From assembly GCF_003334315.1 (NCBI RefSeq), contig NZ_QOWR01000046.1: a stretch of DNA of 38,030 nucleotides. One strand, written 5' to 3'. The position numbers and the translations under genes are program-made. The stretch is from Escherichia coli. Lineage in GTDB: Bacteria; Pseudomonadota; Gammaproteobacteria; Enterobacterales; Enterobacteriaceae. How positions within the stretch are numbered: position 1 is the first letter of the stretch; each line of letters begins with the position of its first letter. Shown here in pieces: positions 24,600 to 30,295 of the stretch. The notes under the pieces were generated by a model. The model saw only the letters and a list, made by a program, of their open reading frames with translations. It did no database searches and was not told the origin of the DNA.

Positions 24600-28664
<4,065 letters not shown>

Positions 28665-28707
28665 TGTTATCCCTCTGAAGTTCGTTTTTTACCATTTAGC
28701 CATAGTA

Positions 28708-28790
28708 AAAACATGAATTGTTTGATTTCGCGCATATTCGCTCATAATTCGAAAGTGAAACGTGATTTCATGCGTCATTTTGAACATTTT
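28708..28790. promoter_or_regulatory. Tandem array of GlpR operator half-site-like repeats in the glpACB/glpTQ divergent control region
   Basis: Consecutive ~10-bp units sharing TTCGnnCAT / TTTGAACAT (atttcgcgcat, attcgctcat, aattcgaaag, tgaaacgtgat, ttcatgcgtcat, tttgaacat). Confidence 0.5.
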
Positions 28791-28807
28791 GTAAATCTTA
28801 TTTAATA

Positions 28808-28829
28808 ATGTGTGCGGCAATTCACATTT
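28808..28829. promoter_or_regulatory. Candidate CRP binding site TGTGC-N6-TCACA in the glp divergent region
   Basis: aatgTGTGCggcaatTCACAttta; 9/10 match to the TGTGA-N6-TCACA core. Confidence 0.5.
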
Positions 28830-28936
28830 AATTTATGAATGTTTTCTTAACATCGCGGCAACTCAAGAAACGGCAGGTTCTCTCACTGAATCAGGCTGTT
28901 AATCATAAATAAGACCACGGGCCACGGAGGCTATCA

Positions 28937-30295
28937 ATGTTGAGTATTTTTAAACCAGCGCCACACAAAGCGCGCTTACCTGCCGCGGAGATCGATCCGA
29001 CTTATCGTCGATTGCGCTGGCAAATTTTCCTGGGGATATTCTTTGGCTATGCGGCTTACTATTTGGTTCGTAAGAACTTTGCGCTTGCTATGCCTTATCT
29101 GGTTGAGCAGGGATTCTCACGCGGTGATTTAGGTTTTGCCCTTTCGGGGATCTCGATTGCTTATGGATTTTCGAAATTCATCATGGGTTCGGTATCGGAT
29201 CGCTCGAATCCGCGCGTTTTCCTGCCCGCAGGTTTGATTCTGGCGGCGGCAGTGATGTTGTTTATGGGCTTTGTGCCATGGGCGACGTCGAGCATTGCGG
29301 TGATGTTTGTACTGTTGTTCCTCTGCGGTTGGTTCCAGGGGATGGGGTGGCCGCCGTGTGGTCGTACTATGGTGCACTGGTGGTCGCAGAAAGAACGTGG
29401 CGGCATTGTGTCAGTGTGGAACTGTGCGCACAACGTCGGTGGTGGTATTCCGCCGCTGCTGTTCCTGCTGGGGATGGCCTGGTTCAATGACTGGCATGCG
29501 GCGCTCTATATGCCTGCTTTCTGCGCCATTCTGGTGGCATTATTCGCCTTTGCGATGATGCGCGATACCCCGCAATCCTGTGGCTTGCCGCCGATCGAAG
29601 AGTACAAAAATGATTATCCGGACGACTATAACGAAAAAGCGGAACAGGAGCTGACGGCGAAGCAAATCTTCATGCAGTATGTACTGCCGAACAAACTGCT
29701 GTGGTATATCGCCATCGCCAACGTGTTCGTTTATCTGCTGCGTTACGGCATCCTCGACTGGTCACCGACTTATCTGAAAGAGGTTAAGCATTTCGCGCTG
29801 GATAAATCCTCCTGGGCCTACTTCCTTTATGAATATGCAGGTATTCCGGGCACTCTGCTGTGCGGCTGGATGTCGGATAAAGTCTTCCGTGGCAACCGTG
29901 GGGCAACCGGCGTTTTCTTTATGACACTGGTGACCATCGCGACTATCGTTTACTGGATGAACCCGGCAGGTAACCCAACCGTCGATATGATTTGTATGAT
30001 TGTTATCGGCTTCCTGATCTACGGTCCTGTGATGCTGATCGGTCTGCATGCGCTGGAACTGGCACCGAAAAAAGCGGCAGGTACGGCAGCGGGCTTTACC
30101 GGGCTGTTTGGTTACCTGGGCGGTTCGGTGGCGGCGAGCGCGATTGTTGGCTACACCGTGGACTTCTTCGGCTGGGATGGCGGCTTTATGGTAATGATTG
30201 GCGGCAGCATTCTGGCGGTTATCTTGTTGATTGTTGTGATGATTGGCGAAAAACGTCGCCATGAACAATTACTGCAAAAACGCAACGGAGGCTAA
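28937..30295 (+). CDS. glpT: Glycerol-3-phosphate:phosphate antiporter (MFS)
   Basis: 452-aa ORF, recognised GlpT sequence, SD GGAGG upstream. Confidence 0.93.

Follow-up and report, generated by a model that had tools for sequence, protein, structure and literature searches.

The spacer between glpA and glpT, located in a 38,030-nt stretch of Escherichia coli DNA that was analysed as a whole (hereafter the window), is very probably the region from which the divergent operons glpACB and glpTQ are jointly controlled, by GlpR, CRP and FNR. The preliminary description of this DNA had already read it as a glpACB/glpTQ region controlled by GlpR and CRP, a reading supported by the NCBIfam names of the flanking genes, the complete identity with K-12, the match to the GlpR consensus and a published CRP footprint. 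NCBIfam models name the products GlpA (NF008313, 1108.8 bits; b2241 in the K-12 annotation), GlpB, GlpC, GlpT and GlpQ, with scores far over the curated cut-offs; glpA is followed downstream by glpB and glpC, and glpT by glpQ. When positions 28640-28960 were aligned with E. coli K-12 MG1655, 321 of 321 columns were identical (100%); the DNA and the flanking genes are the same, without any sequence difference, and since the spacer is identical the results published for the K-12 glpTQ-glpACB control region apply directly. A window position x corresponds to K-12 position 2352647 + 28664 - x. That region was footprinted and genetically dissected between 1987 and 1997; it is already known, and the present sequence brings nothing new with respect to K-12. 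Of 5426 complete E. coli genomes, 5420 gave a match to an 801-bp query around the spacer, and an Rfam search of the control region returned no RNA family match.

According to a passage of PMC2946308 (citing Larson 1992), the spacer holds four operators to which GlpR binds, a repression loop is formed, and only one of the two operons is induced by CRP; the several GlpR operators, the repression loop and the CRP activation of one operon are, as far as that passage goes, the reported K-12 features that match here. The half-site map obtained by us (Table 1) may nevertheless split the protected DNA otherwise than the published four 20-bp operators.

Table 1. Coordinates of the features in the glpA-glpT spacer and its flanks (positions of the window).
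Feature	Sequence	Position	Strand	Score and remarks
glpA, anaerobic glycerol-3-phosphate dehydrogenase subunit A		27036-28664	-	542-aa ORF; start codon 28664-28662
glpA-glpT spacer		28665-28936		272 bp, between divergent glpA (-) and glpT (+)
GlpR operator-like 20-mer	GAAGTTCGTTTTTTACCATT	28677-28696		15/20, consensus scan; over predicted glpA start and -10
glpA extended -10, predicted	TGgCTAAAT	28694-28702	-	implies a start near 28687
Inverted (L-type) half-site	ATTGTTTGAT	28717-28726	+	score 8; its TTGAT is the left half of the FNR site
Best GlpR-like 20-mer		28717-28736		17/20, top of 38,011 positions; inverted half plus unit 1
FNR site	TTGAT-TTCG-CGCAT	28722-28735		7/10 to TTGAT-N4-ATCAA; overlaps GlpR unit 1
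Unit 1	TTCGCGCATA	28727-28736	+	GlpR half-site score 9/10
Unit 2	TTCGCTCATA	28737-28746	+	GlpR half-site score 8/10
Unit 3	TTCGAAAGTG	28748-28757	+	GlpR half-site score 8/10
Candidate weak second CRP site	AAACGTGATTTCATGCGTCATT	28758-28779		units 4-5; centre 28768.5
Unit 4	AACGTGATTT	28759-28768		GlpR half-site score 8/10
GlpR operator-like 20-mer	CATGCGTCATTTTGAACATT	28769-28788		15/20; contains unit 6
Unit 5	ATGCGTCATT	28770-28779		GlpR half-site score 6/10
Unit 6	TTTGAACATT	28779-28788		GlpR half-site score 9/10
CRP site	AATGTGTGCGGCAATTCACATT	28807-28828		core TGTGCGGCAATTCACA at 28811-28826, TGTGC-N6-TCACA; centre 28818.5
glpT -10, predicted	TAACAT	28848-28853	+	aligns with TACTAT, TACCAT, TACAAT in relatives
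glpT transcription start		28858	+	back-calculated from the -52/-30 and -136/-123 coordinates of PMC5352689; 28860 if CRP is at -41.5
glpT ribosome-binding site	GGAGG	28926-28930	+	start codon 28937-28939; CCACGGAGGC nearly invariant in 26 species
glpT		28937-30295	+	452-aa ORF; NCBIfam NF008433, 977 bits

On the glpA side of the spacer, six consecutive units of about 10 bp sharing a TTCG..CAT core had been described between 28726 and 28790. Six units are indeed present there and form a chain, the best one in the window, with unit-to-unit steps of 10, 11, 11, 11 and 9 bp (mean 10.4); the literal core, however, is not shared by all of them, being found in units 1-2 only and in partial form in units 3-6. 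Tandem Repeats Finder reported only 2.4 copies (28727-28751), the plain autocorrelation at shift 10 was weak (z 1.5), and the mean pairwise identity of the six units was 4.67/10 versus 2.53 +/- 0.38 window-wide, a comparison for which the offsets were picked after seeing the data. Moreover, a chain statistic was calculated for six same-strand half-sites of the form WWCGARMATW with 9-11 bp spacing, on both strands, which amounts to 75,952 starts. The six-unit chain sums to 48/60, the single best score among all of these starts, and it exceeds those of all 200 whole-window shuffles (maximum 45) and of all 2000 spacer shuffles (maximum 46), the latter keeping the dinucleotide content of the AT-rich spacer. 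Single GlpR half-sites showed no window-wide enrichment (44 found versus 56 expected); it is the phased cluster, and not the individual half-sites, which is significant. The array exceeds chance, yet it is looser than the earlier wording implied.

GlpR is a DeoR-family repressor that is inactivated by glycerol-3-phosphate. Its half-site consensus is reportedly WATKYTCGWW (Zhao et al. 1994), the reverse complement being WWCGARMATW, and TTCG..CAT corresponds to this half-site. We checked the consensus on other loci: immediately in front of glpD it finds a palindrome that matches at all positions (20/20), and it also marks the glpFK stretch said in the literature to hold four operators, O1-O4. 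Motif scanning for GlpR and CRP, suggested as a check in the preliminary description, placed the best GlpR-like 20-mer of the window in the array, and scored 28811-28826 at 9/10 core positions of TGTGA-N6-TCACA. The earlier map was nonetheless incomplete, since it lacked the operator-like sequence at 28677-28696, the inverted half-site at 28717-28726 and, overlapping unit 1, the FNR site at 28722-28735.

An independent matrix was also trained, on ten half-sites from glpD and glpFK. With this matrix units 1, 2, 4 and 6 fall within the top 0.3% of positions and unit 3 within the top 0.8%, while unit 5 fails (rank 6715 of 76,042); by simple hit density, another 80-bp stretch ties with the array. 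In each half, the bases critical for GlpR are reportedly T at position 8 and T-C-G at positions 5, 4 and 3, counted from the centre (Zhao 1994). Judged by these bases, the central CG is present in units 1-4, at 28729/30, 28739/40 and 28750/51 in the first three, and the A of CGA only in unit 3; the position-8 base is absent in units 3 and 4, and the inverted half has TTG, unit 5 GC and unit 6 TG. Each GlpR-regulated operon has 4-8 sites, and nine of the 17 curated GlpR sites deviate from the palindromic consensus at 9 or more of 22 positions (PMC7567609). A full-text literature search for the operator sequences recovered only a primer and an unrelated match.

With regard to the operator-like sequence at 28677-28696, its half-site 28677-28686 reaches 8/10 or more in 62% of the 26 Enterobacteriaceae, and two Enterobacter species have a perfect TATGTTCGTT; GlpR may bind here as well. 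Within glpA, a 20-mer at 27744-27763 (CDS nt 902-921) scores 15/20, holds the best single GlpR-type half-site of the window (AACGCGCATT, minus strand, 11.5 bits) and is the most conserved GlpR-like 20-mer of the gene across 52 species (mean 12.8). It could be regarded, weakly, as a candidate for one of the intragenic operators which are said in the literature to loop to the spacer. In a synonymous-site scan of glpA, run without codon-degeneracy normalisation, only the overlap of glpA with glpB stood out convincingly; conservation at synonymous sites peaks (z 5.7) in the last glpA codons, 27039-27059, which is an expected overlap constraint because the glpB start overlaps glpA by 11 nt.

Divergent glpA is kept at 52 of 80 Enterobacterales glpT loci. 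In an alignment of 26 Enterobacteriaceae species the conserved blocks are CATTTAGCCA (28693-28702), which is the most conserved one on the glpA side, 28718-28757, the CRP site and the glpT ribosome-binding site. Conservation of each unit was expressed as the share of these 26 species in which it scores at least 8/10 as a GlpR half-site; the values were 88% for the inverted half, 88%, 77% and 92% for units 1, 2 and 3, and 42%, 4% and 50% for units 4, 5 and 6, respectively, unit 6 being kept mainly in Escherichia, Citrobacter and Superficieibacter. Units 1-3 (28727-28757) are the conserved core of the array, and units 4-6 are without GlpR-site conservation outside close relatives. The six-unit array is best read as a conserved GlpR core, 28717-28757, to which an extension is joined that is more lineage-specific and has CRP/FNR-type DNA interleaved with it.

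The spacers of distant genera (Yersinia, Serratia, Pectobacterium, Dickeya and Providencia; L045, L052, L057, L022, L040 and others) are 300-590 bp long and carry a near-perfect CRP site, e.g. TGTGATCAAAGTCACA, whose distance to the point where the GlpR/FNR array starts is exactly 72 bp, versus ~102 bp in the E. coli group; as both the CRP-array distance and the spacer length differ, glpT promoter architecture differs between lineages. The GlpR array and the CRP site are separated by another element, at 28789-28806, namely a direct repeat (C/T)TGTCATAwwwnTGTAAC with 11-bp phasing that looks like a Pho box; its likeness to an ArcA site is poorer. The repeat is kept in Citrobacter, Klebsiella, Enterobacter, Kosakonia and Raoultella (examples are the L018 and L023 spacers, ~119-141 nt from the glpA start, and the Klebsiella/Citrobacter element CTGTCATAtttCTGTAAC), a related form is found in Yersinia and Serratia, and it is decayed in Escherichia (TTGTAAATCTTATTTAAT, 8/14); a Pho-box core of at least 11/14 occurs in 13 of 53 spacers. 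An ArcA ChIP supplement has no peak entry at glpA-glpT. The only mildly new points of this work are comparative: the inverted-plus-direct GlpR core across Enterobacterales, the half-site held in common with FNR, and the Pho-box/ArcA-like repeat, which most relatives have and which is decayed in Escherichia.

On the glpT side, the TGTGC-N6-TCACA sequence that had been described at 28811-28826 is found at exactly that place, and it lies inside the published CRP footprint. CRP cores with at most one mismatch number 3 in 38 kb versus 0.95 expected, a count reached by 8 of 100 shuffles; the CRP pattern alone is not rare enough as proof. The site is conserved, without a change of place, in the majority of the 26 Enterobacteriaceae spacers that were aligned, and a CRP-like core of at least 8/10 is present somewhere in 47 of 53 Enterobacterales spacers. 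The identical sequence is contained in a 25-bp CRP-cAMP DNase I footprint, -52 to -30 of glpT, and neither crp nor cyaA mutants showed detectable glpT expression (Kurabayashi et al. 2017, PMC5352689); by the numbering of that work the CRP centre is at -39.5. With the footprint and the CRP dependence taken from that work on identical sequence, 28807-28828 is the class II activator site of the glpT promoter. As in class II CRP promoters, e.g. galP1 (Busby & Ebright 1999), a 22-bp CRP site lies over the -35 region at about -40/-41.5, and glpT is wholly crp/cya dependent; unlike in those promoters, the left half of the site is TGTGC and not TGTGA, and FNR, ~90 bp further upstream, also contributes at glpT (PMC5352689).

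A generic sigma-70 scan called neither the glpA nor the glpT promoter, both of which are activator-dependent; its sole calls, at 28780-28809, are probably spurious. The supplements of Kim 2012 and Ettwiller 2016 list no start sites for glpT or glpA. An 11-nt direct repeat was also observed, GCGGCAATTCA at 28814-28824 and GCGGCAACTCA at 28855-28865, with 41 bp from one copy to the other; the CRP site contains the first copy, and the second coincides with the glpT transcription start. This repeat is kept only in close relatives and is probably due to chance.

The FNR site is not distinctive by sequence, as there are 197 equally good sites in the window. Its position corresponds to -136 to -123 of glpT, within the ~70-bp DNase I footprint of FNR(D154A), and FNR binds upstream and enhances glpT expression (PMC5352689); on our coordinates this footprint maps to ~28703-28772, covering units 1-4. 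In Yersinia, Serratia, Pectobacterium and relatives the same place is taken by TTGAT-AAGG-AACAA, a near-consensus FNR box. TTG replaces the critical TCG of GlpR in all aligned sequences but one MAG (L075), and TTGAT is present in all but this one of the 53 arrays; given such an invariant TTG, the inverted half seems constrained by FNR. From the predicted extended -10, glpA would start at ~28687 and the FNR site would be centred at about -41.5, making it a putative class II FNR site at glpA. In one supplementary table of Myers et al. 2013 an FNR ChIP peak, 'glpT/glpa', is listed only for the strain without hns and stpA, which suggests that nucleoid proteins mask the FNR site under the growth conditions used there; FNR occupancy in vivo thus depends on conditions, as far as this table goes.

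Putting the sequence together with established knowledge, we propose that GlpR would bind cooperatively to the helically phased half-sites in 28717-28788, and that the operator-like site over the predicted glpA start would add to GlpR repression. Cooperativity between tandem GlpR operators is reportedly greatest at 20-22 bp centre-to-centre. A phasing of 10.4 bp puts successive half-sites on one helical face, in line with this optimum, and it is consistent with the one-face, cooperative binding that the preliminary description had suggested. Since the core 28717-28757 overlaps the glpA -35 region as well as the FNR site, GlpR, once bound, would keep both FNR and RNA polymerase off glpA. From the glpT start the array is ~70-140 bp away, on the upstream side, clear of the glpT core promoter and of the main CRP site; hence glpT would have to be repressed from a distance, through loops to other operators, as is stated in the titles of Larson, Cantwell & van Loo-Bhattacharya 1992 (J Biol Chem 267:6114) and Yang, Gerhardt & Larson 1997 (Mol Microbiol 24:511). 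CRP-cAMP at 28807-28828, its centre at about -40 or -41.5, is needed for glpT transcription as a class II activator, and FNR around 28722-28735 is so placed that it would activate glpA anaerobically, and it also enhances glpT.

The array could alternatively be a composite of sites for three proteins, to which we give somewhat less than an even chance: GlpR would occupy units 1-3 and 28717-28726, units 4-5 would be a weak second CRP site (centre 28768.5) or FNR/CRP-family DNA, and unit 6 would be part of a separate operator, 28769-28788. Units 4-5 coincide with a CRP-like half-site of the (T/C)GTGA type, TGTGA replaces CGTGA at unit 4 in many relatives, and Raoultella has TGTGA-N8-TCACA (TGTGATTTCATGCTCACA). 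The candidate centre is exactly 50 bp from that of the main CRP site, a separation which fits the tandem CRP sites reportedly found near -41.5 and -91.5 (Larson 1992). The drop in GlpR-site conservation from units 1-3 (88, 77 and 92% of species) to units 4-6 (42, 4 and 50%), the failure of unit 5 with the independent GlpR matrix and the FNR(D154A) footprint over units 1-4 (PMC5352689) all favour a composite. The E. coli candidate, however, has a poor right half and reaches only 5/10 overall; a single CRP-protected region was described (Kurabayashi 2017, PMC5352689); and the independent GlpR matrix gives unit 4 a score of 6.8 bits, as high as those of units 1-2. Overlapping sites would moreover allow competitive binding by both proteins, and the composite is in this sense a refinement, more than a rival, of the conserved GlpR core with its extension.

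It is very improbable that the ~10.4-bp periodicity reflects instead intrinsic curvature, or an architecture laid down by nucleoid proteins (H-NS, Fis, IHF), in an AT-rich divergent promoter region. The AT-rich spacer does contain phased T-tracts, and the FNR peak listed only without hns and stpA in the table of Myers 2013 hints at H-NS occupancy; but conservation falls on the CG cores and on the CA/AT of the GlpR half-site and not on A/T tracts, 0 of the 2000 dinucleotide-preserving spacer shuffles reach the observed chain score, and the same motif architecture appears again at glpD and glpFK. Least probable of all, with hardly any chance of being right, is that the repeat pattern is a fortuitous resemblance picked by eye, as the autocorrelation (z ~1.5), the 2.4 copies of Tandem Repeats Finder and the lack of enrichment of single half-sites in the window might have indicated. 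Nothing else in the window, and none of the 2200 shuffles, equals the chain statistic; the pattern is conserved across the order Enterobacterales, and the sequence is identical to a region given as GlpR-bound in the passage of PMC2946308; the statistic and the conservation together effectively refute a chance resemblance.

GlpR operator clusters have reportedly been described at glpD and glpFK (Ye & Larson 1988; Weissenborn et al. 1992; Zhao et al. 1994), and the conserved GlpR core of the glpA/T spacer can be compared with them. This core reads L-R-R-R, i.e. an inverted pair followed by same-orientation half-sites in 10-11 bp steps, with scores of 8, 9, 8 and 8. The same L-R-R-R order is displayed by the glpD cluster (L082, 962-1001; scores 10, 10, 8 and 8) and by the glpFK cluster (L083, 3170-3209; scores 8, 9, 9 and 9). 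The glpA/T core differs from both in that its inverted half has TTG, not the critical TCG, and doubles as the FNR half TTGAT; its half-site spacing is 10 and 11 bp versus 10 and 10 bp at glpD/glpFK; and, unlike the other two, it serves a pair of divergent promoters, with FNR and CRP sites interleaved. The third half-site scores a mean of 8.27 as R-type versus 5.92 as L-type in the 26 species, 9 versus 5 at glpFK and 8 versus 7 at glpD; the clusters thus do not read as tandem palindromes (L-R-L-R, with a 20-22 bp period), in which this half-site would be L-type. Among 53 Enterobacterales spacers, 45 carry an L-R-R-R chain of at least 32/40, with L always nearest glpA, and the mean score was 33.7 versus 25.7 +/- 1.35 in shuffles. 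A tentative generalization, which we regard as rather unlikely, is that the high-affinity clusters of GlpR consist of an inverted half-site pair plus at least two same-orientation half-sites (CG cores 6, 10 and 10-11 bp apart) and not of tandem 20-bp palindromes, in which case four half-sites on one DNA face would correspond to one tetramer; at glpA/T the inverted half would then have been co-opted as the FNR half-site. If true, the L-R-R-R order would explain the poor palindromic fit of about half of the curated GlpR sites (PMC7567609).

Among the E. coli genomes that matched the region, 14EC001 (L084), a clinical isolate from China, has glpT interrupted by IS1A ~219 nt into the CDS (about window position 29155), and strain 361 shows a similar two-piece match at glpT with IS1A beneath; for IS1A in glpT, loss of GlpT-mediated fosfomycin uptake would be expected. 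The control region studied here governs glycerol-3-phosphate uptake and anaerobic oxidation and, GlpT being an entry route of the antibiotic fosfomycin, its CRP, FNR and GlpR sites bear on fosfomycin susceptibility (PMC5352689).
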